This document shows positions 1-50,623 of a stretch of DNA of 64,000 nucleotides, piece by piece. The translations under genes and the position numbers were made by a program. Source of the stretch: a virus (lineage: Duplodnaviria > Heunggongvirae > Uroviricota > Caudoviricetes); the IMG/VR virus record IMGVR_UViG_3300032116_000094, positions 1 through 64,000 of that record, one strand, 5' to 3'. How positions within the stretch are numbered: the first letter of the stretch is position 1; each line of letters begins with the position of its first letter. Under the pieces are notes generated by a model. It was not told where the DNA came from. It did not search any database and was given only the letters and a program-made list of their open reading frames with translations.

Positions 1-177
1 GAAGTATACTATAACTATGAATTTAGAGACAAAATTTGTAAGTTAATTCGTTTAAAAAAGGTTGATTTTGAAATACTTCTGAGCAAATGGGTTGAAGATA
101 CCTTTCAAATGAAGGTTAAGACCATCGCTTCCGAGTATCCTTTCGCCTCAAAGCTGTTGAAGATACCAACCAAATAA
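1..177 (+). CDS. Array-A paralog, 3' partial (5' end upstream of window)
   Basis: In frame from nt 1. Nt 1-128 are identical to 343-470 of unit 190..516. Unique tail AS EYPFASK then LKIPTK*, stop TAA 175-177. Confidence 0.6.
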   Translation, partial: EVYYNYEFRDKICKLIRLKKVDFEILLSKWVEDTFQMKVKTIASEYPFASKLLKIPTK

Positions 178-189
178 AATCCAAATAAC

Positions 190-516
190 ATGAGCAAAGA
201 AGAATATTATAGTAAAATAAAAAAAATTGTTTACCGAAAGTTTGACGAACTGGAAGTGGTTGAACGTAACGATGGAGACGACATATATCTTCATTATAAA
301 AATAATAGATATGCTGAAATCCTAATTAAGAAAAAATCAGGTGAAGTATACTATAACTATGAATTTAGAGACAAAATTTGTAAGTTAATTCGTTTAAAAA
401 AGGTTGATTTTGAAATACTTCTGAGCAAATGGGTTGAAGATACCTTTCAAATGAAGGTTAAGACCATCGACGTAACCGATGTATTGCTCTATTTTCTGGT
501 TGAAGATACCAACTAA
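190..516 (+). CDS. Array-A paralog unit 1 (~108 aa; conserved body + unique C-terminal tail)
   Basis: ORF. N-term MSKEEYYSKIKK. WVEDTFQMKV motif. Tail KTIDVTDVLLYFL then VEDTN*. Confidence 0.7.
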   Translation: MSKEEYYSKIKKIVYRKFDELEVVERNDGDDIYLHYKNNRYAEILIKKKSGEVYYNYEFRDKICKLIRLKKVDFEILLSKWVEDTFQMKVKTIDVTDVLLYFLVEDTN

Positions 517-532
517 ATAAAAACTAAATGAT

Positions 533-862
533 ATGAGCAAAGAAGAATATTATAATAAAATAAAAAAATTAATTTACAGAAAGTTTGATGAACTAGAGGT
601 ATTCAAAAGTACTAATGGAAAGAAAATATATCTTCATTATAAAAATAGTGAATATGCAAATATCCTAATTAATAAAAAATCAGGTGAAGTATACTATCAT
701 TATAATTTTAGAGACAAATTTTTTTATACAATTCGTTTAGAAAATGCTGATTTTCAAATATTCTTGAAAGGATGGATTGAAAATACCTTTCAAATTAAGG
801 TAAGTCACCCTGCTGTAATCCCAAGCCACCTGATTCGTTGGTTGAAGATACCAACTAAATAA
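533..862 (+). CDS. Array-A paralog unit 2
   Basis: ORF. MSKEEYY N-term. Tail SHPAVIPSHLIRW then LKIPTK* (R2 read in a different frame). Confidence 0.7.
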   Translation: MSKEEYYNKIKKLIYRKFDELEVFKSTNGKKIYLHYKNSEYANILINKKSGEVYYHYNFRDKFFYTIRLENADFQIFLKGWIENTFQIKVSHPAVIPSHLIRWLKIPTK

Positions 863-874
863 AATTTAGATAAC

Positions 875-1189
875 ATGAGCAAAGAAGAATATTATAGTAA
901 AATAAAAAGATTCGTTTATAAAAGGTTTAATGAGCTGGAAGTTATTGACCGTAATAATGGAAATTTTTTGTATCTTGGTTATAAAAACAAAGGTTATGCT
1001 GAGATTGTGATCGATAAAAACTCAGGTTTGGTTTACTACTATACTGGATTCAAAGATAAAATTAATAAGATGGTTCCGTTGAAAATGCGTGATTTTGAAA
1101 TTCTTTTGGATAGATGGGTTGAAGATACCTTTAAAATAAAAGTGATCAATACCCTGTGGTACAGTAATTATTCATGGTACCGAATTTGA
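875..1189 (+). CDS. Array-A paralog unit 3
   Basis: ORF. Tail INTLWYSNYSWYRI*. Stop falls inside R2 (third frame). Confidence 0.7.
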   Translation: MSKEEYYSKIKRFVYKRFNELEVIDRNNGNFLYLGYKNKGYAEIVIDKNSGLVYYYTGFKDKINKMVPLKMRDFEILLDRWVEDTFKIKVINTLWYSNYSWYRI

Positions 1190-1218
1190 AGATACATCCC
1201 AAATAAAATTTATATAAC

Positions 1219-1551
1219 ATGAGCAAAGAACAGTATTATAATAAAATAAAAATATTCATTTACAGAAAGTTTGAAGAACTGGAAGTGGTTGAACGTGATA
1301 AAGGAAATGTTTTGTATATTCGTTATAATAATGAAATATATGCCCAGATATTAATTGAAAAAAAATCAGGTAAGGTTTACTACTCTTATAGGTTAAGTAA
1401 AAAAATGTATAAAATAATCCCGTTGGAAACGACTGATTTTGAGTTATTTTTGAGCAAATGGATTGAAAATACTTTTCAAGTGAAGGTAAAACAAATCTTA
1501 CATGGCAAAAAAACACGATCACGTGCTTGGCTAAAAATACCTTTAAAATAA
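1219..1551 (+). CDS. Array-A paralog unit 4
   Basis: ORF. MSKEQYY N-term. First ~90 nt identical to unit 1564..1902. Tail KQILHGKKTRSRAW then LKIPLK. Confidence 0.7.
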   Translation: MSKEQYYNKIKIFIYRKFEELEVVERDKGNVLYIRYNNEIYAQILIEKKSGKVYYSYRLSKKMYKIIPLETTDFELFLSKWIENTFQVKVKQILHGKKTRSRAWLKIPLK

Positions 1552-1563
1552 AATTTAGATAAC

Positions 1564-1902
1564 ATGAGCAAAGAACAGTATTATAATAAAATAAAAATAT
1601 TCATTTACAGAAAGTTTGAAGAACTGGAAGTGGTTGAACGTGATAAAGGAAATTATTTGTATCTTCGTCACAAAAATGACGAATTCGTTCAAATCATGAT
1701 TGATAAAAAATCTAGTTTGGTTTACTACTATACTAAATTCAGAGATAAAATTAATAAGATAGTTCGGTTGGAACAGACTGATTTTGAAATTCTTTTGAAG
1801 AGATGGGTTGAAGATACATTTAAAATAAAGGTGATCAATATCAAGATGAGGTTTTCACGGTGGAGCCCGATGGATGAACATAACTTTAAGATAAAATTTT
1901 AA
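1564..1902 (+). CDS. Array-A paralog unit 5
   Basis: ORF. Tail INIKMRFSRWSPMDEHNF then KIKF. Confidence 0.7.
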   Translation: MSKEQYYNKIKIFIYRKFEELEVVERDKGNYLYLRHKNDEFVQIMIDKKSSLVYYYTKFRDKINKIVRLEQTDFEILLKRWVEDTFKIKVINIKMRFSRWSPMDEHNFKIKF

Positions 1903-1906
1903 TAAA

Positions 1907-2221
1907 ATGAGTAAAGAAGAGTATTATAGTAAAATAAAAAGATTTGTTTACCGAAAGTTTAATGAATTGGAAGTGGTTGAACGTAATCTTGGCGATGCTT
2001 TGTTTCTTCGTTATAATAATGAACCATATGCTCAGATCCGAATTAATATAAAATCGGGTAATGTTTACTATTATCGTAACTTTAGAAACAAATTTATTAA
2101 GGTAATTCATATGGAAAATAGTGATTTTGAAATACTTTTGGGCAAATGGATTGAAGAAACCTTTCAAATTAAGGTTAGCGACATTATACCCCAAAAATAC
2201 ACCATTATACTCATTGATTGA
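1907..2221 (+). CDS. Array-A paralog unit 6
   Basis: ORF. Tail SDIIPQKYTIILID. Confidence 0.7.
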   Translation: MSKEEYYSKIKRFVYRKFNELEVVERNLGDALFLRYNNEPYAQIRINIKSGNVYYYRNFRNKFIKVIHMENSDFEILLGKWIEETFQIKVSDIIPQKYTIILID

Positions 2222-2250
2222 AGATACCTTCCAAATAAAAACTAAGTAAC

Positions 2251-2589
2251 ATGAGCAAAGAAGAATATTATAGTAAAATAAAAAGATTTGTTTACAGAAA
2301 GTTTGATGAACTGGAAGTAACTGAACGTAATAAACGAAATGACTTGTATCTTCATTATAAAAATAACGAATATGCTGAAATCCTAATTAAGAAAAAATCA
2401 GGTGAAGTATACTATAACTATAACTATGAACTTAGTGACAAATTTTTTATGACAATTAATTTAGAAAAGGTTGATTTTGAAATACTTCTGGGCAGATGGG
2501 TTGAAGATACCTTTCAAATGAAGGTGAATCACACCCATGAGTGCGTACTCGTGATCGAGCATATGATGTTGAAGATACCTTTCAAATAA
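2251..2589 (+). CDS. Array-A paralog unit 7
   Basis: ORF. Tail NHTHECVLVIEHMM then LKIPFK. Confidence 0.7.
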   Translation: MSKEEYYSKIKRFVYRKFDELEVTERNKRNDLYLHYKNNEYAEILIKKKSGEVYYNYNYELSDKFFMTINLEKVDFEILLGRWVEDTFQMKVNHTHECVLVIEHMMLKIPFK

Positions 2590-2601
2590 AATTTAGATAA
2601 C

Positions 2602-2937
2602 ATGAGCAAAGAAGAATATTATAGTAAAATAAAAAGATTTGTTTACCGAAAGTTTGACGAACTGGAAGTGATTCATAGTAGTCATAACAATGATTTGTAT
2701 ATTCGCTATAAAAATGATAAATATGCACAGATCGTAATCGGAAAAACAACTGGGTTTATTTTTTATTATTATGAATTTAAAGACAAAATTTGTAATATCA
2801 TTCAGTTGGAAACGCGTGATTTTAAAATACTTTTAGAACGATGGGTTCAAGATACTTTTCAAATAAAAGTGGAGCTCACTGTTAAAATTGATTACATGAG
2901 CGGTCTGCTCGTTGAAGATACCAATAAAATAACTTAA
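2602..2937 (+). CDS. Array-A paralog unit 8
   Basis: ORF. Tail ELTVKIDYMSGLL then VEDTNKIT. Confidence 0.7.
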   Translation: MSKEEYYSKIKRFVYRKFDELEVIHSSHNNDLYIRYKNDKYAQIVIGKTTGFIFYYYEFKDKICNIIQLETRDFKILLERWVQDTFQIKVELTVKIDYMSGLLVEDTNKIT

Positions 2938-2942
2938 ATGAC

Positions 2943-3272
2943 ATGAGTAAAGATAGGTTATATAAAGGAATAAAAAATATCATTTATCGGGAAATTGATT
3001 CGCTGCAAGTTAGCGAACGTAATGATGGAATTTACGTTTATCTTCATTATAAAAATCCTGACCGTGCTCAGATTGTAATTGAAAAAAATTCGGGTTGGGT
3101 TTTCTATTATTATAGATTCAAAGACAAAATTTTTAAGAAAATTCCGCTGGAAAACCGTGATTTTGAAATACTTTTAGAGCAATGGGTTGAAGATAAATTT
3201 CAAATAAAAGTGACCGGCATCTGGAGATCGAAGTTTCTTTCAATGGCTGCATTGAATATACCTCCCAAATAA
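2943..3272 (+). CDS. Array-A paralog unit 9
   Basis: ORF. MSKDRLY N-term. Tail TGIWRSKFLSMAAL then NIPPK. Tail is near-identical to the next unit. Confidence 0.7.
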   Translation: MSKDRLYKGIKNIIYREIDSLQVSERNDGIYVYLHYKNPDRAQIVIEKNSGWVFYYYRFKDKIFKKIPLENRDFEILLEQWVEDKFQIKVTGIWRSKFLSMAALNIPPK

Positions 3273-3284
3273 AAATTAAATGAT

Positions 3285-3614
3285 ATGAGCAAAAAGGAAT
3301 ATTATAGTAAAATAAAAAGATTTGTTTACAGAAGGTTTGATGAACTGGAAGTGGCTGAAGGTGATAATGGGAATATTTTGTGTTTTGGTTATAAAAACAA
3401 AGGTTATGCGGAGATTGTGATCTATAAAAACTCAGGTCGGGTTTTCTATTCTAAAAGATTCAGAGACAAAATTAATAAGATATTTCGGTTTGAAGAGATT
3501 GATTTTAAAATTTTTTTGAAGAAATGGGTTGAAGATAAATTTAAAATAAAAGTGACCGGCGTCTGGATATCGAAGTTTCTTTCAATGGCAGCATTGAATA
3601 TGCCACCCAAATAA
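3285..3614 (+). CDS. Array-A paralog unit 10
   Basis: ORF. Tail TGVWISKFLSMAAL then NMPPK (recent duplicate of unit 9 tail). Confidence 0.7.
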   Translation: MSKKEYYSKIKRFVYRRFDELEVAEGDNGNILCFGYKNKGYAEIVIYKNSGRVFYSKRFRDKINKIFRFEEIDFKIFLKKWVEDKFKIKVTGVWISKFLSMAALNMPPK

Positions 3615-3626
3615 AAATTAAATGAC

Positions 3627-3971
3627 ATGAGTAAAGAAAAATATTACAACAAAATAAAAAGATACATTTACAGAAAGTTTGAGGAACTGGAGGTATTCGA
3701 AAGTAATGATGGAAATTATTTGTATCTTCGTTACAAACATGCTGAATTTGCTAAAATAGTGGTTAATAAAAGCTTACTTAAAGTTTCCTACTATACTGGA
3801 TTCAGAGATAAAATTAATAAGATAGTTCCGTTGGAAAAACGTGATTTTGAAATTCTATTGAAGAGATGGATTAAAGATACATTTCAAATGAAGATGAAAA
3901 ATGCCAACGCGATAAAGTACGCAGAGGTGCTGCTAGTCGTTGAAGATACTTTTAAAATAAAATTTAGATAA
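3627..3971 (+). CDS. Array-A paralog unit 11
   Basis: ORF. Tail KNANAIKYAEVLLV then VEDTFKIKFR (R2 read in frame a through to KFR*). Confidence 0.7.
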   Translation: MSKEKYYNKIKRYIYRKFEELEVFESNDGNYLYLRYKHAEFAKIVVNKSLLKVSYYTGFRDKINKIVPLEKRDFEILLKRWIKDTFQMKMKNANAIKYAEVLLVVEDTFKIKFR

Positions 3972-3972
3972 C

Positions 3973-4296
3973 ATGAGCAAAGAACAGTATTATAATAAAA
4001 TAAAAAGGTACATTTACAGAAAGTTTGATGAACTGGAAGTGATTAATAAAGGAGCTTATGTGTATCTTCGTTATAAAAACGATGATTATGCCGACATCCT
4101 AATTCGAAAAGAATTAGGTTATGTTTACTATTATTCTGGATTTAAAAAGAAAATTATTAATATAACCCGGTTGGAGACACGTGATTTTGAAATACTTCTG
4201 TACAGATGGATTGAAAATACCCTTCAAATAAAGGTTAATGAGATCTATTCTAAGGGTGGAGAAACCTTCGACAGATTTGAGATTCCTTTCAAATAA
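3973..4296 (+). CDS. Array-A paralog unit 12
   Basis: ORF. Tail NEIYSKGGETFDRFE then IPFK. Confidence 0.7.
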   Translation: MSKEQYYNKIKRYIYRKFDELEVINKGAYVYLRYKNDDYADILIRKELGYVYYYSGFKKKIINITRLETRDFEILLYRWIENTLQIKVNEIYSKGGETFDRFEIPFK

Positions 4297-4308
4297 AATT
4301 TTAATGAT

Positions 4309-4638
4309 ATGAAAAAAGAAGAATATTATAATAAAATAAAAAGATTGGTTTATAGAAAGTTTAACGAACTGGAATTGGTTGAACGTAATAATCGAAATGA
4401 GTTGTATCTTCGTTATAAAAATGGTGACTCCGCTCAAATCATGATCAATAAAAACTCAGGTTGGGTTTACTATTTTAGAAGATTCAGATACAAAATTGAT
4501 AACATGATTCGGTTGGAACAGGATGATTTTGAAATACTTCTAACTAAATGGGTTGAAGATACCTTTAAAATAAAGGTGATCAACACCCATTGCACCGGGT
4601 TCGTTCACCAATTTCCGTTGAAGATACCTTTAAAATAA
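4309..4638 (+). CDS. Array-A paralog unit 13 (followed by a second repeat-spacer module)
   Basis: ORF. Tail INTHCTGFVHQFP then LKIPLK. Downstream 4617-4716 holds another full repeat plus an unrelated spacer. Confidence 0.7.
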   Translation: MKKEEYYNKIKRLVYRKFNELELVERNNRNELYLRYKNGDSAQIMINKNSGWVYYFRRFRYKIDNMIRLEQDDFEILLTKWVEDTFKIKVINTHCTGFVHQFPLKIPLK

Positions 4639-4716
4639 AGGTGATCAACACCATACAGCGGCTGTACTCAAATATATTGCAGGTTGAAGATACCCTTCAA
4701 ATAAAATTTAAATAAC
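4552..4716 (+). repeat. Repeat-spacer-repeat-spacer-repeat module at the 3' end of unit 13
   Basis: gttgaagatacctttaaaataaaggtgatcaaca occurs exactly twice (4552-4585, 4617-4650). A degenerate third copy is at 4683-4706. Intervening segments of 31 and 32 nt are unrelated. Confidence 0.85.
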
Positions 4717-5046
4717 ATGAGCAAAGAACAGTATTATAATAAAATAAAAAAATTCGTGTACAGAAAGTTTGACGAACTGGAAGTGAGCAAACGTAATCTT
4801 GGAAACGATATATTTCTTCATTATAACAATGCGAAATATGATCAGATCCTAATTCAAAAAAAATCGGGTTATATTTACTATCAATCTAAATATAGAGATA
4901 AAATTATTAAACCAATAGCATTGGAAAATGTTGATTTTGAAATACTTTTAAAGCGATGGGTTGAAGATACCTTTCAAATGAAAGTTAATGACACCGGGCT
5001 CAAGTATATGAGCAACGCCACAGAGTTAAAGAAACCTCCCAAATAA
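4717..5046 (+). CDS. Array-A paralog unit 14
   Basis: ORF. Tail NDTGLKYMSNATE then LKKPPK. Confidence 0.7.
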   Translation: MSKEQYYNKIKKFVYRKFDELEVSKRNLGNDIFLHYNNAKYDQILIQKKSGYIYYQSKYRDKIIKPIALENVDFEILLKRWVEDTFQMKVNDTGLKYMSNATELKKPPK

Positions 5047-6093: not shown

Positions 6094-6423
6094 ATGAGCA
6101 AAGAAGAATATTATAGTAAAATAAAAAAAATCATTTACAGAAAGTTTGACGAACTGGAAGTGGTTAAACGTAATAGAGGAAATAATTTGTATCTTCGTTA
6201 TAAAAATGAAGAATACGCTCAGATTCGAATTAATAAAAAATCAGATTTTGTTTACTATTCTTATACTTTAAGTGACAAAATTTGTAAGATATTTCAGTTG
6301 GAAAAGCGTGATTTTGAAATAATCTTAAGGGCCTGGATTGAAGATACCTTTAAAATTAAACAAATACTTATCCAAAGATGTAATGTGCTGCTGTCATCAA
6401 CGTTGTACATACCTTTGAAATAA
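6094..6423 (+). CDS. Array-A paralog unit 18
   Basis: ORF. Tail QILIQRCNVLLSSTLY then IPLK. Confidence 0.7.
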   Translation: MSKEEYYSKIKKIIYRKFDELEVVKRNRGNNLYLRYKNEEYAQIRINKKSDFVYYSYTLSDKICKIFQLEKRDFEIILRAWIEDTFKIKQILIQRCNVLLSSTLYIPLK

Positions 6424-7465: not shown

Positions 7466-7804
7466 ATGGATAAAGAAAAATATTATAATAAAATAAAAAA
7501 ATGGATATATGAAAAGTTCAATGGGCTGAATATATATGAAAGTTATAATGGAAGCACAATATATCTTCATTATAAAAATGATGACCAAGTTCAGATCAAA
7601 ATTAGAAAAAATAGTGGCATAATTCAGTATTATAATGGTTTTATGGATAAAATTATTAAACCAATTTCTTTGAATCCTAATGATTTCGAAATACTCCTAG
7701 GCAGATGGGTTGAAGAAAAGTTTAAAACAGATGTTATTCACATCCGGTCTATTGGTGTTGTGCGTGTTCTGTTTGTTGAACATAAATTCAAAAGGAAAAT
7801 TTAA
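7466..7804 (+). CDS. Array-A paralog unit 22
   Basis: ORF. Tail IHIRSIGVVRVLF then VEHKFKRKI. Confidence 0.65.
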   Translation: MDKEKYYNKIKKWIYEKFNGLNIYESYNGSTIYLHYKNDDQVQIKIRKNSGIIQYYNGFMDKIIKPISLNPNDFEILLGRWVEEKFKTDVIHIRSIGVVRVLFVEHKFKRKI

Positions 7805-7815
7805 TTAAATTAATC

Positions 7816-8127
7816 ATGGATAAAGAAAAATTTTATAATAAAATAAAAATTTGGATATACAGAAAGTTTGATGAACTGGAAGTTAGTGAAAGCTCCGATG
7901 GGACAATAATATGCCTTCGTTACAAAGATAATGCTTACATTCAGGTCAGTATTGAAAAAACATACAACCAAATTATCTATAATGCCGCTTTCAGGGACAA
8001 TATTTCTAAGCTGATTCGATTGCAAAAGCGTGACTTTGAAACACTTCTAAGCAATTGGATTAAAAAGACCTTTAAAATGAAAGTGGCCACCATCATTCCG
8101 GGGTATACAGGTACATTATGTTATTGA
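7816..8127 (+). CDS. Array-A paralog unit 23
   Basis: ORF. Tail ATIIPGYTGTLCY. Confidence 0.65.
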   Translation: MDKEKFYNKIKIWIYRKFDELEVSESSDGTIICLRYKDNAYIQVSIEKTYNQIIYNAAFRDNISKLIRLQKRDFETLLSNWIKKTFKMKVATIIPGYTGTLCY

Positions 8128-8162: not shown

Positions 8163-8480
8163 ATGAGTAAAGAAGAATATTATGATAGAATAAAAAAATG
8201 GCTTTATATTAAGTTTGATGAACTGAAAGTAATTGAAAGCCTTAATGGAAATAACTTATTTTTTAAATATAAAAATCAAAAATATTGTGATATACGAATT
8301 CAAAAAAATTCAGGTATAGTTTTTTATTATTATATGTTTAGTGAGAAATTTTTTAACAGGATTCGTTTGAAAGAGGCTGATTTTGAAATAATTCTGAGCA
8401 AATGGATTGAAGATAGATTTAAAATTAAGGTAACTAAAATGGTTAAAAGGATCGTCGGAAGAGAAATCATTGTTGATTGA
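8163..8480 (+). CDS. Array-A paralog unit 24
   Basis: ORF. Tail TKMVKRIVGREIIVD. Confidence 0.65.
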   Translation: MSKEEYYDRIKKWLYIKFDELKVIESLNGNNLFFKYKNQKYCDIRIQKNSGIVFYYYMFSEKFFNRIRLKEADFEIILSKWIEDRFKIKVTKMVKRIVGREIIVD

Positions 8481-8517
8481 TACCTTTCAAGTGATGGCTA
8501 ATAATAAATAATACGGC

Positions 8518-8835
8518 ATGGATAAAGAACAATATTATAATAAAATAAAAAATTGGTTATCTAACAAGCTTGATAAGCTGTACATAATTGAAACCTCTGA
8601 AGGTACTTTATACCTATATAAAAAGAATGATGATTTTCCTCAGCTCCGGATTCATAAAAGTTCAGGCTTAGTTTGTTATTATATTGGATTCGCAAACGAT
8701 CTGCTTAAAAAGGTTCCAATGGGTATTATTGATTTTGAAATAATTCTGGGTGCATATATTGAAGATATTCTTGAAATTAAGGTGACTGTAATTTCCCCCC
8801 TTCCAACGGTGTATGATGTTGATGATAAATTCTAA
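8518..8835 (+). CDS. Array-A paralog unit 25
   Basis: ORF. Divergent body. Tail TVISPLPTVYDVDDKF. Confidence 0.65.
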   Translation: MDKEQYYNKIKNWLSNKLDKLYIIETSEGTLYLYKKNDDFPQLRIHKSSGLVCYYIGFANDLLKKVPMGIIDFEIILGAYIEDILEIKVTVISPLPTVYDVDDKF

Positions 8836-8857
8836 TTAACAGTATAAATATTTAAAT

Positions 8858-9172
8858 ATGGATAAAGAACAATATTATAATAGAATAAAAAAATGGGTTT
8901 ATGGAAAGTTTGATGAACTGGAAGTGATTAAAAGAAAGAAAGGGAGTAACGTGTATCTTCGTTATAAAAATGGCGAATATACTCAGGTTGAAATTGATAA
9001 AAAATTTGGTCATGTTTACTATTATTATGAATTCAGCGAGAAAATTTGTAAACATCTTCGCATTGAAAAGCATGACTTTGAAATACTTTTGAAAAGATGG
9101 GTCGAAGAGACCTTTCAAATGAAGGTGGATAATGTCATAATTTGTGTAGTACGTAGCCGCCCGATAGCTTAA
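8858..9172 (+). CDS. Array-A paralog unit 26
   Basis: ORF. Tail DNVIICVVRSRPIA. Confidence 0.65.
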   Translation: MDKEQYYNRIKKWVYGKFDELEVIKRKKGSNVYLRYKNGEYTQVEIDKKFGHVYYYYEFSEKICKHLRIEKHDFEILLKRWVEETFQMKVDNVIICVVRSRPIA

Positions 9173-9198
9173 TAAAGGTAAACTATAAATCTTTAAAT

Positions 9199-9525
9199 AT
9201 GGATAAAGAGCAATATTATAATAGCATAAAAAAATTGTTATATAAAAAGTTCGACGAGCTAAAATTATATGATAACCCTAATGGGCTTGTAAGTTATTTA
9301 CATTACGATAGAGATGATTACGCTCAGATCCTAATTTTTAAACACACAGGCCGAGTTTTTTATTATCATGGTTTCGCAAAGAAACTTTTTAAGTTTATTC
9401 GACTAGAATATGAAGATTTTGAAATACTCTTGGGTAGATGGGTTGAAGAAAAATTTAAAATACATGTGAAAAGTATCAGACAGACAACAGATGTCCGCAT
9501 ACCTGGTTTTAACTCTAATTTTTAA
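9199..9525 (+). CDS. Array-A paralog unit 27
   Basis: ORF. Tail KSIRQTTDVRIPGFNSNF. Confidence 0.65.
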   Translation: MDKEQYYNSIKKLLYKKFDELKLYDNPNGLVSYLHYDRDDYAQILIFKHTGRVFYYHGFAKKLFKFIRLEYEDFEILLGRWVEEKFKIHVKSIRQTTDVRIPGFNSNF

Positions 9526-9530
9526 ATGGC

Positions 9531-9824
9531 ATGTATAAAGAAAAATATCATAATAGCATAAAAAAATGGGTTTATAGCAAATTTGATGAACTGCACGTAA
9601 TCTCAAACTGTGAAGAAAATTTATATTTCGGTTATAAAAATGATTCTTTTTTTGTTATACGAATTTATAAAGCCACAGGTAATGTTTATTATACACATCG
9701 CTTGAGAGACCTAGTTAGTAAAAAACTTGCCTTAAATATCATTGATTTTGAGATTCTTTTACGTAGATGGATTGAAAGTAAATGTGAAATTAAAATAAAT
9801 AAAATCATTGACCTCCTTTTTTAA
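9531..9824 (+). CDS. Array-A paralog unit 28
   Basis: ORF. MYKEKYH N-term. Short tail NKIIDLLF. Confidence 0.6.
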   Translation: MYKEKYHNSIKKWVYSKFDELHVISNCEENLYFGYKNDSFFVIRIYKATGNVYYTHRLRDLVSKKLALNIIDFEILLRRWIESKCEIKINKIIDLLF

Positions 9825-9870
9825 TTTGTACATATCCCCCCCATTTTAGCTCCCCCAATTTATTTTTAAT

Positions 9871-9904
9871 TATTTGAATTTGTTAATTTTATCCTGTACC
9901 TTTG
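9871..9904 (+). promoter_or_regulatory. Internal Bacteroidetes-type promoter inside array A
   Basis: TTTG at 9873-9876. ~20-nt spacer. TAccTTTG at 9897-9904. ATG at 9914. Preceded by an unusual C-rich tract (9830-9860). Confidence 0.45.
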
Positions 9905-9913
9905 TTCTTTACT

Positions 9914-10219
9914 ATGAACGAAGATAAGCTATATACTATAACTCAAAAATGGTTACAAAGGAAACTTAGTAATCTGGTCGTATCTGAAGATATCGAAAAA
10001 ATATCACTTAAGCGTAAAGGTGATACTGACTCAACTATTGTGATCTATAAAAATCGTAATCTTGTTTGTTATTTAGGAGGATATAGAAATAAACTTACTA
10101 GTATGTTACCAATGAAAATCAGCCTATTTAATTTCTTATTGAAGAATTGGGTTAAAGATAATTATAACATTGAAATAATAGAAGTTTCCTCTAGTGCTAG
10201 CATGTACAATCATGGATAA
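9914..10219 (+). CDS. Array-A paralog, divergent subfamily (no duplicated R2)
   Basis: ORF 9902..10219. Start moved to ATG 9914 (MNEDKLYTI) because a TAccTTTG -7 box lies at 9897-9904. Motif NWVKDNYNIEI. Confidence 0.55.
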   Translation: MNEDKLYTITQKWLQRKLSNLVVSEDIEKISLKRKGDTDSTIVIYKNRNLVCYLGGYRNKLTSMLPMKISLFNFLLKNWVKDNYNIEIIEVSSSASMYNHG

Positions 10220-10553
10220 AGAAAAGCTATATAACATAGCCGGAAAATGGATTAATAATAAGTTCGATACTCTGGTGAAAGAACAAGACAATGAGCCATC
10301 TTGCATTACTCTGTGTTCTTGTCTCAACAATAAGACTATTATTCGAATTTACAAAAGTGATGGTTGTGTATGTTATAACGTAGATTACATGAAAAAAATA
10401 ATTAAGTTATTCCCCATGCAAATCGAAGATTTCGAATTACTGCTAAAAAAATGGGTACAATATAAATTTGATATTAAAGTAACTGAAGTCATAGCTTTTG
10501 ACTTGTTAATAGTTAACCCCCAAGTTAGTTATATGATTTATGCTCAAAGATAA
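10212..10553 (+). CDS. Array-A paralog, divergent subfamily
   Basis: ORF 10194..10553. Family-type start MDKEKLYNIAGKW at 10212. Overlaps previous stop by 8 nt. Confidence 0.55.
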   Translation: MDKEKLYNIAGKWINNKFDTLVKEQDNEPSCITLCSCLNNKTIIRIYKSDGCVCYNVDYMKKIIKLFPMQIEDFELLLKKWVQYKFDIKVTEVIAFDLLIVNPQVSYMIYAQR

Positions 10554-10836
10554 ATTATACCGTGTGGCTCAAAAATGGACCTACAGGAAGTTTAATAACC
10601 TGGGTGTATGGGAATCTGATCATGTTGTAGAACTTCGCCATGACGACGATCCTCGCATTACTATTCACATTTATAAAGAGCTTGAAAGGGTTTTTTATTA
10701 CGAAGATTACATGCAAAGGATCATTAATGTATTCCCCATGCAAATAGAAGACTTCGAATTGCTTTTATGTCAATGGATTGACGAAAAATTTAAAGTTAAA
10801 ATAAATAACATATATAGAATGAGATTCCGGCCATAA
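10540..10836 (+). CDS. Array-A paralog, divergent subfamily
   Basis: ORF. MLKDKLYRVAQKW..QWIDEKFKVKI. Overlaps previous unit by 14 nt. Confidence 0.55.
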   Translation: MLKDKLYRVAQKWTYRKFNNLGVWESDHVVELRHDDDPRITIHIYKELERVFYYEDYMQRIINVFPMQIEDFELLLCQWIDEKFKVKINNIYRMRFRP

Positions 10837-10873
10837 TATGAAGATGTTATATTTATTAAGATAAAAGATTATT

Positions 10874-11179
10874 ATGGATGATAAATTATATCTAGCGGCA
10901 AGAAGGGTTCTTTATAAGAAATTTGATGTGTTGTTCGTGAGAGAAGATGAGGATAAAATAGACCTTAGCCCTTACGACGACGAATATTCTGTAATTAGAA
11001 TATATAAAAAGTTCGGCATTGTTTATTATATGACAGATTTCAAGAAAAAAGTCATTCAAAAATTTCCGGTACCAAACGTTGATTTTGAAATACTTTTAAT
11101 TATGTGGGTCGAACATAAATTCGGAATTAAAGTTAAAAAAGTCAACAGCTACAGTTGGTATTTAAATGCTTTACTTTGA
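10874..11179 (+). CDS. Array-A paralog, divergent subfamily
   Basis: ORF. MDDKLYLAARR..DFEILLIMWVEHKFGIKV. Confidence 0.6.
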   Translation: MDDKLYLAARRVLYKKFDVLFVREDEDKIDLSPYDDEYSVIRIYKKFGIVYYMTDFKKKVIQKFPVPNVDFEILLIMWVEHKFGIKVKKVNSYSWYLNALL

Positions 11180-11221
11180 AGATATATTTCAGGCTATTGA
11201 ATCTTAAAAACATTTGCCAAT

Positions 11222-11521
11222 ATGAGTAAACTAAAATTTTATGTTAAAGCCGGGAGATGGTTTTATAATCAGTTTGAAAAGTTGACAATTGTCACTGAAC
11301 GCAAAGTTTTACATCTTCACACATATATTGATTTTAAATGCGATATTCGAATTTATCTAAATTATGGTGAAGTATTTTACGATGTAAATTATATGCACAA
11401 GTTGTTTAAACTGTTCCCGATATCACAATCCGACTTTGACACTATTTTAGCCAATTGGGTTGAAAATAAATTCAATATAAATGTGCGAATTATCCGGCCA
11501 TTCAATGAATCGGTTTATTAA
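11222..11521 (+). CDS. Array-A paralog, divergent subfamily
   Basis: ORF. ..SDFDTILANWVENKFNINV. Confidence 0.6.
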   Translation: MSKLKFYVKAGRWFYNQFEKLTIVTERKVLHLHTYIDFKCDIRIYLNYGEVFYDVNYMHKLFKLFPISQSDFDTILANWVENKFNINVRIIRPFNESVY

Positions 11522-11530
11522 AATAGTATT

Positions 11531-11830
11531 ATGAGTAAAGAACTATTATATCTTAAAACCAGGAGATGGTTTTACAAGAAATTTGATCAGTTGATTGTGA
11601 CTGTAGATGAAGATAATATAAATCTCAGTAGTAAAGATAATAAATCGAAATTTGTTCGGATTTATATATATGATGATGAGATTTTGGTATATTATTATAT
11701 TAGATTCAAATATCAGTTAACTAAAATAATACCATTAGAAAGATTGGACTTTGAATTTTTCTTGAAAGAATGGATCGAAGATAAATTCGGCCTAAAAATC
11801 GATTATGTATATGAAAGTGATTATAAGTAA
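11531..11830 (+). CDS. Array-A paralog, divergent subfamily
   Basis: ORF. Near-duplicate of 11857..12156. Ends ..WIEDKFGLKIDYVYESDYK. Confidence 0.6.
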   Translation: MSKELLYLKTRRWFYKKFDQLIVTVDEDNINLSSKDNKSKFVRIYIYDDEILVYYYIRFKYQLTKIIPLERLDFEFFLKEWIEDKFGLKIDYVYESDYK

Positions 11831-11856
11831 TATGGCCCAATCAAAGTATATGTTAT

Positions 11857-12156
11857 ATGAGCGAAAATAAGTTATATATTAAAGTCATAAGATGGTTTTA
11901 CATGAAATTTGATCAGTTGATTGTGACCGCAGATGAAAATCGTATAATCCTCAGTAGTAAAGATAATAAATCGAAATTTGTTCGGATTTATATATATGAT
12001 GATGAGATTTTGGTATATTATTATGCCGGATTCAGATATTATTTAACTAAAATAATACCATTAGAAACATCGGATTTTGAATTGTTCTTGGTAAAATGGA
12101 TCGAAGAGAAATTCGGCCTAAAAATCGATGATGTACGTGAAAGTGATTATAACTAA
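11857..12156 (+). CDS. Array-A paralog, divergent subfamily
   Basis: ORF. Near-duplicate of previous unit, including the shared intergenic block tatggcccaatcaaagtatatgttatATG. Confidence 0.6.
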   Translation: MSENKLYIKVIRWFYMKFDQLIVTADENRIILSSKDNKSKFVRIYIYDDEILVYYYAGFRYYLTKIIPLETSDFELFLVKWIEEKFGLKIDDVRESDYN

Positions 12157-12182
12157 TATGGCCCAATCAAAGTATATGTTAT

Positions 12183-12467
12183 ATGAGCGAAAATAAGTTA
12201 TATCTTAAAACCAGGAGATGGTTTTATAACCAATTTGATAAGTTGAAAGAATCTGAGGACACTGAAAAAATAGTGCTTAGGGATAAGCATGAGTTTTCTG
12301 TGGTCCGTATATATAAATCGGAAAAAGAAGCATTTTATTTCGTATTCTTCAGGTATGATCTGGTTAGTGTTATCCCTATTAAAAATGCAGATTTTGAAAT
12401 GTTTCTGAGAGAATGGATCGAAGATAAATTCAAAATAAAACTAACTAAAATGCACGTCAAAATCTAA
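12183..12467 (+). CDS. Array-A paralog, divergent subfamily
   Basis: ORF. ..DFEMFLREWIEDKFKIKL. Confidence 0.6.
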   Translation: MSENKLYLKTRRWFYNQFDKLKESEDTEKIVLRDKHEFSVVRIYKSEKEAFYFVFFRYDLVSVIPIKNADFEMFLREWIEDKFKIKLTKMHVKI

Positions 12468-12480
12468 GAAACACAGGATC

Positions 12481-12780
12481 ATGAAGAATGAAAAATCATA
12501 TATTAAAATCAGGAAATGGTTTTATCACAAGTTTGATATGCTGACGTTTTATACTACCAATGAAAAAATAAATCTTTTTGATATAGAAGAAGATTCTGTT
12601 ATACGAGTATATTTGATAAACAATGAAGGTGAAATCTTTTATTATGAAGATTTTATGCTTGATCTAGTTAAAATTATACCAATAAGTATCAACGACTTCG
12701 AACTGTTTTTAACATCCTGGATCGAAGATAAATTTAAAATAAAAGTAATTAAGATACACGCAAGTTCAATATCACAATAG
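12481..12780 (+). CDS. Array-A paralog, divergent subfamily
   Basis: ORF. ..DFELFLTSWIEDKFKIKV. Confidence 0.6.
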   Translation: MKNEKSYIKIRKWFYHKFDMLTFYTTNEKINLFDIEEDSVIRVYLINNEGEIFYYEDFMLDLVKIIPISINDFELFLTSWIEDKFKIKVIKIHASSISQ

Positions 12781-12819
12781 TCAAAAAATTTTTAAAATTA
12801 AACTAACAAATTAATTATT

Positions 12820-13125
12820 ATGGACAACCATAAATCATATCGTAGAACCATGAACTGGTTCTATTCCAGGTTTGACAAGCTGATTGTCATTGAAAACAAA
12901 AATAATATAGAGCTTTACAATAAAGATGATCGTGCCTCTATCGTCCGCATTCACTGGACCGGTGTTGTGTATTACTATAAAAGATTCAGAGATGATCTTA
13001 CTAAGATAGTCCCAGTATCAAAAGAAGACTTTGAAATGATTTTTAGTTCCTGGATTGAGAATAAATTTGAAATTCATATAAATACTATTAAAGAGGTTAC
13101 ATATAAACTTCATACACCAAAGTAA
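12820..13125 (+). CDS. Array-A paralog, divergent subfamily (last unit)
   Basis: ORF. ..DFEMIFSSWIENKFEIHI. Confidence 0.6.
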   Translation: MDNHKSYRRTMNWFYSRFDKLIVIENKNNIELYNKDDRASIVRIHWTGVVYYYKRFRDDLTKIVPVSKEDFEMIFSSWIENKFEIHINTIKEVTYKLHTPK

Positions 13126-13135: not shown

Positions 13136-13187
13136 AGTATGAATAAAAAAAACGATTACCAGGTATTACCCTAGTAATCGTCATACT
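13136..13187. terminator. Long imperfect palindrome at the distal end of array A (candidate bidirectional terminator or recombination site)
   Basis: AGTATGA-A9-CGATTAC - loop 14 nt - GTAATCG-TCATACT. Two 7-bp stems. Lies between the convergent array end and the minus-strand gene 13206..13412. Confidence 0.35.
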
Positions 13188-13205
13188 ATGTTTATATAAT
13201 ATATT

Positions 13206-13432: not shown

Positions 13433-13563
13433 CAGTCAGGGCAGGACTCGAACCTGCAACCATGTATGTGTAGCTCTACAAGCTGACCCGGTTTTCATCC
13501 ATCATAGAGCTACTACTCTTTTTCGGATTTAGACCGGGGCGTTACCAATTCCGCCACCTGACT
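13433..13563 (-). tRNA. Class-II tRNA (Ser-TGA-like) with ~33-nt insertion in the anticodon loop, plus an oversized variable region
   Basis: Minus strand AGTCAGG-TG-GCGGAATTGGTAACGCC-CCGGT-CT[AAATCC..GATGGA]TGAAA-ACCGG ... GCAGGTTCGAGTCCTGC-CCTGACT-G. The 7-bp acceptor pairs. The T-arm is GGTTCGAGTCC. Anticodon stem CCGGT/ACCGG is as in bacterial tRNA-Ser. No CCA encoded. Confidence 0.45.
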
Positions 13564-34871: not shown

Positions 34872-35696
34872 TTAAACTTGGCTAGATTCCTTAAGCATTT
34901 CGTAAGCCCTAGCTAACCTTGTTAAACCAATACCTCCACCAAATCGCTCAAAGAAATTTAAACTAAGAAATTCTTCCAATTCTTTCTCAACTCGTTCTCT
35001 ACCAAATAATTCAAAAAGTTTATTGGCATATGCCCCATCCATTATGTTATAGAACATTTGCCTCATATAATTAACGTCACAAGATCTTTCCGCAGATCCA
35101 ATTGTTTCCTGCCCATAAAGGATAATATCTATCTTATTAAATAGATCATTTCCAGCATGTTTCATATTCCAAAATGGAGATGTCCTGTATGGAAATTTCT
35201 CTAAAGATATAACATTACCAAGTTCTTTCCACATCCTAGATTCGTGCTCATCCTCTAAAATAGGAACCCCTCCGTATTCATCACACATATCGTCATAGTT
35301 TCTACTAACCGGGCTAGAAAATCCTAGATAATCTAGAAGTTCAGCCTCCAATTTTTTAAGCTCAGCAAATCCCCCCTTTGACTCAAATTCAAACATAGGG
35401 AAAATTTTCTCATGTCTTCCAGGGATCGGGTTTTTCTCATTACGGTATGATGTGGAGACGCAAAACACACCTGGCCAATCAGGGTTCTTCAGAAGCTCAT
35501 ATTCAAGCCACATTTGACCCGTTTGTGGTAGAGGCCATACTACTCCATCGTATTCAAAAGTCGCCACAGAGTGGGGATTTTCGCACGCAGCGAGTATTGA
35601 TAATCTGGACTGAGTAGGTACCTCAATCCATCCTTTAGATAAAAAGAAAGATCTCATTTTAGAGACTAGTTCGTGATATGTTTTTGTTTGTTTCAT
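34872..35696 (-). CDS. AsnA-like / truncated class-II aminoacyl-tRNA-synthetase catalytic core (AsnRS/AspRS-type), no anticodon-binding domain
   Basis: ORF 274 aa. Motif 2-like YRNEKNPIPGRHEKIFPMFEFE. ETIGSAER. Motif 3-like FERFGGGIGLTRLARAYE. Confidence 0.55.
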   Translation of the reverse strand: MKQTKTYHELVSKMRSFFLSKGWIEVPTQSRLSILAACENPHSVATFEYDGVVWPLPQTGQMWLEYELLKNPDWPGVFCVSTSYRNEKNPIPGRHEKIFPMFEFESKGGFAELKKLEAELLDYLGFSSPVSRNYDDMCDEYGGVPILEDEHESRMWKELGNVISLEKFPYRTSPFWNMKHAGNDLFNKIDIILYGQETIGSAERSCDVNYMRQMFYNIMDGAYANKLFELFGRERVEKELEEFLSLNFFERFGGGIGLTRLARAYEMLKESSQV

Positions 35697-35742
35697 TTTA
35701 TTTATTTAGATCAAAAATAATAAATAAATGATGGTTTGTAAA

Positions 35743-36669
35743 TCATAACTGCTCAATTAATTCAGGTTTCCCAACAACTAGACTATATCTATTATGAAGA
35801 TTAGAATTGGTTGCTACTGTAATATACATTAAAACTAAGGTCATATATATATGTTCAACTAACTCATTTTTAGTTTTCTTAAAATATTCATAATTAAATA
35901 TTTCCGGCCTATTTGTTAATAGGTTATATTTAACATTTATTTCTGAATTTTTAACTACCATATCTGTTATCACAATATATTTAGTTAGATTTCTATTACT
36001 TGAAACATCAATAAACTTCTTGCTCATAACATGTTTTTTAAATTGTTCAAAAAAATACATAGTTAAATTATGTATTATCACATATATTTCTGTTGTTCTT
36101 TGTTTTAACGCAAATTCTAAATCAAATGTAGTTGCCTGTCTGATAATATGTTTTAATTGTTTACCATAAAAAGATTTCGACATAATATTAGGATCACTAT
36201 GATATTTGTTAATATTTTGAATAATATTAACATTATTGTAGGCAATATAATTTATTTCCCCCCCAATTTCACGGCATACGTATTTTTTATCCCTACCTTT
36301 ATACCACTCACCAACTACAATTCCCGAAATAAATGGAAATCCACACAAACCTAATAATAAAGATTCATTAGTACTTACAGGAAAAACTAATTTAGACCCA
36401 AAAATATCTTTTTCTGTTATTTTTGAACGAGGAATACCTTTCACTCTGGATAATTCTGTTAAATAACGATATCTGAGCGTGAAAATAAATGGAGGTAAAT
36501 CAAATATCTTATCCAAAGAAAATGTCTCAACTAACTTTATAAAAGTTCTATAAGGATAACTACTCATGTCAATCATAGCTAAAGAAAATTCTTCTGAGCT
36601 TAATTCAGAGAATCTCTTTTCTATTAGAGAATATACTTTAAATTCTAAATCAGAAATTTTAGGCTTCAT
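35743..36669 (-). CDS. Array-B paralog (308 aa)
   Basis: ORF. Shared family motifs (..Y.YL.LLS.KLN.P...IT..D.., W...G.GYKYV, NG.FYY). Confidence 0.6.
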   Translation of the reverse strand: MKPKISDLEFKVYSLIEKRFSELSSEEFSLAMIDMSSYPYRTFIKLVETFSLDKIFDLPPFIFTLRYRYLTELSRVKGIPRSKITEKDIFGSKLVFPVSTNESLLLGLCGFPFISGIVVGEWYKGRDKKYVCREIGGEINYIAYNNVNIIQNINKYHSDPNIMSKSFYGKQLKHIIRQATTFDLEFALKQRTTEIYVIIHNLTMYFFEQFKKHVMSKKFIDVSSNRNLTKYIVITDMVVKNSEINVKYNLLTNRPEIFNYEYFKKTKNELVEHIYMTLVLMYITVATNSNLHNRYSLVVGKPELIEQL

Positions 36670-36685
36670 TAGTTTGTTGTGGTTT

Positions 36686-37582
36686 TTATATATAATTGAC
36701 TGCGCATCGATAATTGTAATTCAAAAACTCAGTTTTCTTTATAAGGAATTCTTTGTATTGGCGATCAAGATATTGTTGACCAGAATATAAGCTAATTTTA
36801 TCCATAAATTTATTTATTTTACGGCAATAAAAATTTACTGTTCTATCTTCATGATTTACAACAACATTATCTAAAATAATACTAAAAACGTCTTTTAATT
36901 TAATATGAACTAAACGTGCATCATCACTTTTTATGTAAGTTTTAAAGTCATCAGTGATTGTTCTTAATATAACAGCTACAATATAATCGAAGTCAGCATC
37001 CGAACTTTGGTTTAAAACTATATTAAGATCATTCTTTTTGCATTTTGCAATAATACACTGTTTATTATTCATTACATCATATATATTATAGTATTTAGTA
37101 AAAAGATCATTTTCATGAAAAACCATGTTATTAAATGAAACTAAATTTATCATCCCCGTAGGATTTCTACCAACATATTTAAACCCATTTTTTCTATGCT
37201 CCCATTTGGAATGAAAATTATCAGACATAATAGGAAACCCAAATGCAACCAGTTCTCCTATTACCGAATAACCAACATTAATGTTAAGGACATTATTTAT
37301 TATATCATCAACGGTAATCTGACTTAGGCTTTTATTCAATTTTTCGGATAATAAAGTTAAATAATAGTATCGCATATAAAACAATTTGGTAGGATACCCT
37401 GTACTATCTTCAACATTTAAAGTCTCCATTAATTTTACAAATCTGGTATATAATTTACCTCCACTAATAAAACTAGCATATCCTGGGGCATATTTAAACA
37501 TCATTTTTTTTGGATCATACCCCATAAATTTATTAAATGTTCTATATAAATTAGGTTCAAAACTGAATATCTTTGGTTCCAT
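36686..37582 (-). CDS. Array-B paralog (298 aa)
   Basis: ORF. Family motifs. Confidence 0.6.
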   Translation of the reverse strand: MEPKIFSFEPNLYRTFNKFMGYDPKKMMFKYAPGYASFISGGKLYTRFVKLMETLNVEDSTGYPTKLFYMRYYYLTLLSEKLNKSLSQITVDDIINNVLNINVGYSVIGELVAFGFPIMSDNFHSKWEHRKNGFKYVGRNPTGMINLVSFNNMVFHENDLFTKYYNIYDVMNNKQCIIAKCKKNDLNIVLNQSSDADFDYIVAVILRTITDDFKTYIKSDDARLVHIKLKDVFSIILDNVVVNHEDRTVNFYCRKINKFMDKISLYSGQQYLDRQYKEFLIKKTEFLNYNYRCAVNYI

Positions 37583-37603
37583 ATTTTTATTTAATAATTT
37601 TTA

Positions 37604-39465: not shown

Positions 39466-39493
39466 AATTTTTTAATACTATATTTATAAATAT

Positions 39494-42262: not shown

Positions 42263-42325
42263 AACCCGCTTTTAATTTTTAAATGTTTATGTATATACTT
42301 ATCAAGATACTCATATAGTGCGGTT

Positions 42326-43255: not shown

Positions 43256-43256
43256 A

Positions 43257-44156: not shown

Positions 44157-44167
44157 AAAAATATTGA

Positions 44168-50540: not shown

Positions 50541-50551
50541 GAACTAATTTG

Positions 50552-50623
50552 TGGCGGAGCCTGGACTCGAACCAGGACCTTTAGGTTATGAGCCTAATGA
50601 AGTAACCCTTTTTCCACTCCGCA
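50552..50623 (-). tRNA. tRNA-Met (anticodon CAT; initiator/elongator/Ile2 not distinguishable)
   Basis: Minus strand TGCGGAG-T-G-GAAAAAGGGTTACTTCA-TTAGG-CTCATAA-CCTAA-AGGT-CCTGGTTCGAGTCCAGG-CTCCGCC-A. Clean anticodon stem-loop with CAT. T-arm. Acceptor pairs 2-7. 1:72 mismatch. No CCA. Confidence 0.6.

Follow-up and report, generated by a model that had tools for sequence, protein, structure and literature searches.

The window analysed here comprises 64,000 nucleotides (nt), positions 1-64,000 of IMG/VR record IMGVR_UViG_3300032116_000094, of a freshwater phage (Caudoviricetes) of ~278 kb; the subject is a tandem gene array in this window and the repeat-flanked tails of its genes. Open reading frame (ORF) lists revealed 38 complete paralogous ORFs (94-119 aa, with a unit protein of ~110 aa) and one gene cut by the window start, all on the plus strand between positions 1 and 13125. 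The window starts inside the array, which continues upstream, and units are named here by their start position; comparison contigs are L001, L002, L020, L023-L027 and L029. The same DNA was found on L001 (277,584-bp ENA contig ERZ27247984 k141_1797313), on L020 (103-kb IMG/VR contig) and on many short contigs. An artefact of assembly can be excluded for the array, whose units were recovered in JGI, ENA, NCBI and Logan assemblies on 16 contigs or more. On L001 it starts at 6158, downstream of a 150-nt intergenic region, and a second arm of ~7 units runs divergently on the opposite strand at 2525-5037. A 210-aa protein (L001 5372-6004, minus strand), with an overlapping 137-aa ORF, is encoded between the two divergent arms; neither had a Pfam match, and the 210-aa protein could be linked functionally to the array. 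Upstream of the divergent arm, two small ORFs (L001 887-1138 and 2065-2454, both minus strand) are built from internal peptide repeats, which are KWGTKTTCVLPEWGT in one of them and tryptophan-rich GxW repeats, such as GIWKHGIWENGIWDGGFW, in the other.

Each unit is a real phage gene whose body is coding and under purifying selection: all indels in the bodies are multiples of 3, the ratio of non-synonymous to synonymous substitution rates (dN/dS) is ~0.46 and the diversity at the three codon positions amounts to.315,.242 and.367. The protein family is confined to this phage lineage, where it comprises 52 clusters, and searches of the unit proteins against Pfam, PHROGs and NCBIfam assigned them to no family. 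One unit protein had a weak full-length match to DUF7073 (E=0.066), which was discarded as noise after all 38 members had been scanned, and a query of IMG/VR with a distal unit for further relatives gave no match. AlphaFold, with an alignment headed by the protein of unit 2251, gave a confident alpha-beta domain (predicted local distance difference test, pLDDT, 84.7) followed by a tail of low confidence (pLDDT ~58-61), which looks disordered in the model. The fold had no match in the PDB. A search of BFVD retrieved ~10 uncharacterised phage paralogues (template modelling score 0.5-0.68, identity 7-25%), namely A0A6J5L9L5, L5U3, LB14, L6U7, L9N2, L9M7, L5S8, L5X4, L5T5 and L9Q5, all from "uncultured Caudovirales phage"; the accessions are near-consecutive and apparently belong to one uncultured freshwater phage. 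On the strength of these predicted folds, the multi-copy family seems to exist in at least one other phage as well.

From position 1 to ~8150, the units share a layout of gene body, repeat (R), insert and shortened repeat (R'). The body has a length of 243 nt in 24 of 28 units and of 237, 240 or 249 nt in the rest. R comprises 36 nt, the last 12 conserved codons of the gene, with the consensus GTTGAAGATACCTTTCAAATAAAGGTGATCAACACC, which encodes VEDTFQIKVxxx; in the AlphaFold model it forms the end of helix 3 and strand 5. It is followed by a unit-specific insert of 28-33 nt (mode 29-30), the tail, and then by R', which corresponds to the first 23 nt of R only and leads via AAATTTAGATAAC-ATG into the next gene, the start codon of which lies 10-15 nt past R'. 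The spacing from R to R' is 64-69 nt in 23 units of the window. Each of the three frames meets a stop in R' (a TGA at position 3 and TAA codons at 20 and 31), and 23 of 24 ORFs read across the insert and terminate in R'. Since the insert lengths span all classes modulo 3, R' is read as VEDT.., as LKIP.K or as an immediate TGA stop; being read in three frames, it is an element defined at the level of nucleic acid, which excludes a boundary motif at the protein level. Within R', positions 1-12 (diversity 0.21) and 17-23 (0.03) are conserved and positions 13-16, which are part of a stem, are decaying (0.57). Three inserts are of atypical length, with 41 nt in L029 (280-357), 25 nt in L027 (3878-3939) and 21 nt in an extra unit of L020 at 4094; the latter is a deletion variant of a 32-nt insert, and the atypical lengths point to indels after insertion.

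The array opens with the truncated unit (1-178), in which R lies at 91-126, a 29-nt insert at 127-155 and R' at 156-178; this unit is absent from strain L001. Unit 190 (190-521, ORF 190-516) has R at 433-468, an insert of 30 nt at 469-498 and R' at 499-521, read as VEDTN and a stop, and in unit 533 (533-863, ORF 533-862), with R at 776-811 and an insert of 29 nt at 812-840, R' (841-863) is read as LKIPTK and a stop. A diverged copy of the latter insert was found in unit 6501 of L001. Unit 875 (875-1207, ORF 875-1189; R 1118-1153, insert 1154-1184, 31 nt) ends with the TGA at the start of its R' (1185-1207). The next two are unit 1219 (1219-1552, ORF 1219-1551), with R at 1462-1497, an insert of 32 nt at 1498-1529 and R' at 1530-1552, and unit 1564 (1564-1895, ORF 1564-1902), with R at 1807-1842, a 30-nt insert at 1843-1872 that is also present in L024, and a degenerate R' at 1873-1895. 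They are followed by unit 1907 (1907-2239, ORF 1907-2221; R 2150-2185, insert 2186-2216 of 31 nt, R' 2217-2239), by unit 2251 (2251-2590, ORF 2251-2589; R 2500-2535, insert 2536-2567 of 32 nt), the R' of which (2568-2590) is the exact 23-nt consensus, and by unit 2602 (2602-2933, ORF 2602-2937; R 2845-2880, insert 2881-2910 of 30 nt, R' 2911-2933). The tail of unit 2943 (2943-3273, ORF 2943-3272; R 3186-3221, insert 3222-3250 of 29 nt, R' 3251-3273) is duplicated in unit 3285 (3285-3615, ORF 3285-3614; R 3528-3563, R' 3593-3615), whose 29-nt insert at 3564-3592 is 93% identical. The units at 8163-13125 are older and more diverged; the related strain L023 has a collinear counterpart of this part with ~92% identity. 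Here, R is recognisable and R' is decayed or missing, with remnants of R' in units 8163, 8518, 10540 and 10874 and none in units 11222-12820, indicating that the architecture is old. Downstream, at ~13150-13190, inspection by eye revealed an inverted repeat, GATTACCAGGTATTACCCTAGTAATC, with an A-run before it on the plus strand; it resembles an intrinsic terminator of minus-strand transcription, at a site just ahead of antisense entry into the array.

The inserts differ from everything that surrounds them. Mean pairwise identity among 20 comparable units was 0.66-0.76 in three segments of the body, 0.71 in R and 0.72 in R' plus intergenic region, and amounted to 0.26, the random level, in the inserts, with the pair of units 2943 and 3285 as the only one above 0.47. 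The inserts had a guanine-cytosine (GC) content of 0.444, and 30-mers drawn at random from elsewhere in the window one of 0.303 (Mann-Whitney p=1e-17); in the immediate surroundings of the inserts it is 28-30%. In the window, L001, L020, L023 and L024 together, 46 distinct insert families were found, and L029, from the same sample as the window, contains 5 further novel inserts. Of the 46 inserts, 41 have no stop codon in the frame of the ORF, compared to 26-32 of 46 in the other five frames (binomial P=2.7e-4), which suggests that translation through them matters. The final base of the insert, before the GTTG of the next repeat, is G in 21 and the penultimate one T in 20 of the 46. This bias may reflect a preference of the insertion process at its boundary, or the TGG found ahead of R in the body may be echoed. 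A diversity-generating retroelement was considered as the source of variation and rejected, because the tails align neither with one another nor with other parts of the window and because identical repeats flank unrelated inserts; no reverse transcriptase was found among the scanned ORFs of window and flanks.

Some units contain more than one insert. In unit 4309 of the window, a mini-array at 4552-4705 (plus strand) consists of R (4552-4587), an insert (4588-4616), an identical R (4617-4652), a second insert (4653-4682) and R' (4683-4705); a repeat search returned two 100% identical 36-nt copies and a third at 67%, spaced 65 and 66 nt. L001 has the same order of two repeats, two inserts and R' at 7772-7928, with repeats that are 100% identical over 36-37 nt, and in the related strain L023, from another sample, four full repeats with a period of 66 nt and four novel inserts of 30-31 nt precede R' (4097-4401). 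Across all units with 2-4 inserts, the 36-bp repeats are 100% identical and the period is 65-67 bp. Each internal repeat reproduces the R of its own unit, down to the final 13 nt that vary by unit lineage (types a, b and c). Furthermore, the insert content differs between strains: L024 has R, a new insert, R, insert 13 and R', and L001 has R, insert 12, R, insert 13 and R', so that the insert next to R' is shared and the one next to the body differs; additional novel inserts were found in L023 and L029. Simple tandem duplication followed by divergence is ruled out by the identical repeats around unrelated inserts, and an origin by deletion of a body, i. e. by recombination of the R' of one unit with the R of the next, was rejected as the general cause since every internal repeat agrees exactly with the R of its own unit, the unit-specific 13 nt included. 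To our knowledge, the only process known to insert ~30 bp while duplicating a repeat of ~36 bp is the adaptation of CRISPR arrays.

The bodies have a different history. A sequence-only reading of the window had described a mosaic in which bodies are homogenised and tails stay unique, and its pairwise comparisons were reproduced, with a contrast in identity that exceeds chance by far. The truncated unit (1-177) agrees with unit 190 (190-516) at each base over 1-127 = 343-469 and then changes abruptly; from 128/470 on the two are unrelated, the next shared block starting at 156/499. With the 354 nt that precede the window on the identical contig L002, the tract of identity grows to 207 nt (unit positions 74-280) and ends 1 base beyond R. 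The first 90 nt are the same in units 1219 and 1564, which then diverge and carry unrelated tails, and units 2943 and 3285 differ over most of the body and are near-identical from about unit position 225 to the end, with 94% identity in R and 93% in the insert. Body and tail do have separate histories, as was claimed. Every tail lies between the end of a 36-bp repeat and a truncated copy of it, has the length of a CRISPR spacer and a foreign base composition, and resembles other tails only where a unit or tract was duplicated. Whole tails have occasionally been duplicated, as seen in units 2943 and 3285, in unit 6501 of L001 compared to unit 533 of the window, and in the extra unit of L020. 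Tails had further been proposed to be exchanged or inserted as modules; insertion as discrete modules agrees with our data, and no evidence was found for exchange between units. The notion of homogenised bodies was overstated, because they are only 66-76% identical and the exact tracts are patchy. Nor do breakpoints cluster at the repeat (R1 in that reading), as it had expected: exact tracts span unit positions 1-90, 16-66, 24-71, 120-171 and 216-263, and only the longest (207 nt) ends at the junction of repeat and insert. The invariant feature is the boundary of insertion and not the site of recombination. Exact tracts of 30-207 nt are shared by adjacent and non-adjacent units and start and end all along the bodies. 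Nearly identical strains differ only in the loss or gain of whole units, and one such difference is a chimeric unit that arose by deletion between the two units sharing the 207-nt identity. Judged from these tracts, the mosaicism of the bodies is that of ordinary unequal crossing-over and gene conversion. Since the inserts are non-homologous, tracts of conversion or identity end at them, which gives the mosaic that had been described.

A search of metagenomes for the palindromic core of R, present twice at CRISPR spacing, led to two contigs, L025 and L026, which carry a classical array with the 36-nt repeat GTTGTAATAACCTTTCAAATAAAGGTCTTCCACAAC and spacers of 30-31 nt; repeats at the far end are degenerate and the near end is variable. 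The array is adjoined by a gene for a 1149-aa protein that matches NCBIfam Cas13b (NF038190, E=2e-208) and whose database homologues are named Cas13b of Bacteroidales. R matches the repeat of L026 at 26-27 of 36 positions, ungapped and with the same boundaries; outside the 16-nt core, which was forced by the search, 11-12 of 20 positions match (P ~0.002-0.009, random 36-mers). With the VI-B repeat of Flavobacterium columnare (sequence according to PMC5395568), R shares 24-26 of 36 positions, and the two genuine repeats, that of L026 and that of F. columnare, have 27 of 36 in common. No CRISPR-DR family of Rfam matches R, even at E<=10. The strand of R that corresponds to the CRISPR RNA (crRNA) is antisense to the ORFs, with the orientation anchored on the published PspCas13b guide; comparison of the sense strand gave lower values (18-21 vs 26-27 of 36 for L026, 19-22 vs 24-26 for F. 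columnare). Upon folding, the inner stem ACCUUU/AAAGGU is retained in R, whereas no fold was obtained for R'. R' also keeps exactly the 23 nt that a type II crRNA would retain; a type II reading was not supported, as a duplex scan of the accessible non-array DNA found no anti-repeat of a trans-activating crRNA above background (best -23 kcal/mol, at the array edge).

The geometry of repeat, insert and repeat, the duplication of a unit's own repeat, the foreign composition of the inserts, the differences between strains and the homology of R to repeats adjacent to cas13b are observed. We consider it probable that the tails are CRISPR-type spacers whose site of integration was a VI-B-like repeat serving at the same time as the 3' end of a gene. 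Foreign DNA of ~30 bp would have been integrated at R, with duplication of the repeat in the process, and the downstream repeat copy would then have decayed to R', i. e. to its first 23 bp, which still supply the stop codons and lead into the next gene. The outcome would be ~50 mini-arrays with one spacer each, occasionally with 2-4, every one of them fused in frame to a gene, and the bodies would evolve separately by tandem duplication and deletion of units, by unequal crossing-over and by short tracts of gene conversion. The enzyme would be a Cas1-Cas2-type integrase, most likely of a Bacteroidota host and acting in trans, by analogy with the II-C adaptation module that acts on VI-B arrays in F. 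columnare: VI-B arrays lack cas1 and cas2 and are loaded in trans by the II-C Cas1-Cas2, with a leader-distal GTTGT motif and a repeat length of 36 bp in common (PMC8092290). From the decayed hairpins, the depletion of stops in the sense frame and the lack of targets, we infer that the insertions are tolerated, with selection filtering for a readable gene, and are not kept as working Cas13b guides.

Several observations speak against this explanation. In a genuine Cas13b repeat the 5' GUUG pairs with the 3' CAAC and the whole repeat is one hairpin (PMC13187072); most variants of R cannot form this terminal GUUG/CAAC stem. It is possible in type a alone, with a shift of 3 nt, and is missing from types b and c and from most units. 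Synonymous sites of R are no more conserved than those of the rest of the body. The duplicated copy is the gene-proximal one, at the opposite end, relative to the repeat orientation, from the leader-proximal repeat of the L026 array; integration into a unit's single full repeat gives the order body, R, new insert, R, old insert and R', so that new gene-proximal repeats require no leader at that end. Insert lengths of 28-33 nt (one of 41) are more spread than the 30-31 nt of the host-type array. Neither cas1, cas2, cas9 nor cas13b was found in Pfam or PHROGs scans of ~35 window and flank ORFs, with ~200 kb of the ~278-kb phage genome outside these scans, and none of the best 120 Cas13b homologues lies on the contig of this phage. 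In a set of 185,579 species, no bacterial genome has an array bearing the 19-mer GTTGAAGATACCTTTCAAA; the scan gave ten single chance matches only, for example in an acyl-carrier-protein-like ORF, and the nearest genuine repeat, 75% identical, is the one on the Bacteroidales-type contig. No protospacer was found for any of the 46 inserts in the rest of the window, the comparison loci or INPHARED, and a search of IMG/VR with four of them returned the array itself or no match; host genomes and metagenomes lay outside these searches.

The most serious competitor, which we regard as unlikely, shares the origin by integration and differs in function: the arrays would be an RNA-level weapon of the phage, with antisense transcripts giving spacer-plus-repeat RNAs that load the host's Cas13b, as decoys or as guides against competing phages. 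If they were working guides or decoys, antisense species of ~66 nt ending in ...UCUUCAAC would be expected. The crRNA sense of R does lie antisense to the ORFs, and on that strand an insert followed by a full 36-nt repeat is the guide-repeat layout of Cas13b; extraneous crRNAs can deplete the real ones and weaken Cas13b defence (PMC13187072). Mini-arrays and mimics of repeats are strategies known from viruses (PMC6858448, PMC10651486, PMC11656645), and the first 12 nt of R' are conserved (diversity 0.21) despite three reading frames. However, the outer stem of the hairpin is lost in most variants of R, R' is unfolded, the synonymous sites of R are under no added constraint, and stops are depleted in the sense frame only, which is unexpected for an antisense RNA product. 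Further, the inverted repeat at ~13150-13190 with its T-run on the minus strand would, judged by eye, block antisense read-in from downstream, no target of any insert was found in the searches described above, and activation of Cas13b would hurt the infected cell and hence the phage.

Less likely still is that the protein tails are the selected product, i. e. that integration of spacers is used, or selectively retained, to diversify the translated C-termini of a family of ~50 members. The absence of in-frame stops from 41 of 46 inserts (26-32 of 46 in other frames), the 23 of 24 ORFs that cross the insert and end in R', and the maintenance of ~50 copies with a dN/dS of ~0.46 argue for it. Against it, the tail has a low pLDDT of ~58-61 and looks disordered, the frame and hence the C-terminal motif vary freely among units, and the depletion of stops is also explicable by translational coupling to the next start codon 10-15 nt beyond R'. 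In addition, the fold has no match in the PDB and only uncharacterised phage paralogues in BFVD. In a related reading, the repeat-bearing gene ends may be a high-copy decoy sink for the adaptation machinery of the host.

Another explanation, which we consider improbable, dispenses with the integrase and has spacers copied from a host CRISPR array by homologous recombination of R and R' with host repeats. It agrees with the match of R to genuine Cas13b repeats at 26-27 of 36 positions, and replacement would leave one spacer per unit, which is the common state. However, the internal repeats are the unit's own R, with the last 13 nt tracking the type of the body, and are of three types (a, b and c) and not of one host repeat; furthermore, the 185,579-species set yielded no host array that carries this repeat.

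Finally, an ordinary tandem family with fast or diversifying disordered tails and R' as a conserved intergenic signal, or its variant, precursors of ribosomally synthesised and post-translationally modified peptides (RiPPs) with conserved leader and hypervariable core, is very improbable. In its favour, tandem paralogues often combine conserved bodies with variable ends, the model shows a folded body and a disordered tail, and two pairs of tails have diverged by point mutation after duplication. Against it, the tails come in lengths that are not multiples of 3, three frames are used to read the downstream repeat, the GC content of the tails is 14 points above that of the surroundings, tails that cannot be aligned lie between ~70%-identical flanks, exact 36-bp repeat duplications stand between unrelated inserts, R is homologous to Cas13b repeats and no RiPP-type enzymes were found among the scanned neighbour ORFs. 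RiPP families such as cyanobactin patE and the prochlorosins likewise consist of many paralogues in which the N-terminal part is conserved and a short C-terminal part, enclosed by conserved sequence, is hypervariable. Their boundaries are protein motifs in frame, whereas the downstream boundary in the phage is set at the level of DNA and read in three frames.

Repeats and spacers of CRISPR arrays are regarded as non-coding, and a coding arrangement of ~50 repeat-spacer units is not described in the literature that we found. Judged from the reading frames, ~50 such units lie within genes of one phage and their spacers would be translated, which makes the arrangement a new one. Off-target "neo-CRISPR" integration into E. 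coli chromosomes under overexpression of Cas1-Cas2 has reportedly been observed by Nivala et al. in 2018. Like there, the phage inserts are spacer-sized, a repeat length is duplicated and the site merely resembles a CRISPR repeat; unlike there, the phage case would be natural, recurrent (>50 distinct inserts), located within phage genes and inherited. The term "neo-CRISPR" appears in bioRxiv 10.1101/148544. If host Cas1-Cas2 made the inserts, the array would document, naturally and in heritable form, an off-target adaptation into a virus and would mean that a virus can tolerate or exploit such integration.

Among CRISPR-related systems, virus-borne mini-CRISPR arrays (Medvedeva et al. 2019, PMC6858448; PMC11656645) are similar in that 1-2 spacers between CRISPR-type repeats lie in a viral genome with no cas gene nearby. 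They are non-coding, few per genome, have repeats identical to those of the host and mostly target related viruses (PMC6858448), whereas the phage array has ~50 units per genome, in frame at the 3' ends of paralogous genes, with mutually diverged repeats and with no targets or host array found in the searches described above. The Cas-less arrays of huge phages (Al-Shayeb et al. 2020, PMC7162821) also occur in phages of >200 kb as repeat-spacer units that lack a module for adaptation. They are presumably served by Cas proteins of the host and are conventional and compact, with a median of six repeats (PMC7162821), but the repeats of the phage described here are separated by gene bodies of 277 nt and are part of the coding sequence. 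Like VI-B arrays (Hoikkala et al. 2021, PMC8092290), the phage has a 36-bp repeat starting with GTTG, an internal hairpin, spacers of ~30 bp and no cas1 or cas2 at the locus; unlike VI-B arrays, the CAAC end and the terminal stem are mostly lost, there is no cas13b or recognisable leader, the locus is in a phage and the gene-proximal repeat is the duplicated one. RNA anti-CRISPRs or solitary repeat units (Camara-Wilpert et al. 2023, PMC10651486) are likewise phage-borne mimics of host repeats, but these are non-coding single repeats behind promoters, whereas R is located inside ORFs, paired with inserts and VI-B-like. In the 2023 survey, type VI was the only CRISPR type without a viral repeat mimic (PMC10651486), and type VI-like repeats in a virus would be described here for the first time. 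For this uncultured phage, the locus suggests a host from the Bacteroidota that carries Cas13b.

The remaining window is that of a large phage, with genes for ThyX, an SLT transglycosylase, a metallophosphoesterase, a DUF932 protein, an SPFH protein and mostly unknown proteins. A second tandem family of 10-11 adjacent genes is encoded at 34872-45127 on the minus strand; its proteins have ~275-319 aa and 12-22% mutual identity, and neither of the two members tested had a Pfam or PHROG match. At 13433-13563 (minus strand), a tRNA-like gene fits the Rfam tRNA model end to end (42.5 bits) and has an insertion of 38 nt in the anticodon loop and a long variable arm; it was not called by ARAGORN and may be an intron-containing type II tRNA in a phage. 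A GOLLD RNA (Rfam RF02032, 231.5 bits, full-length) was identified at 49707-50134 on the minus strand, ~400 nt from a tRNA-Met gene at 50551-50623 on the same strand.

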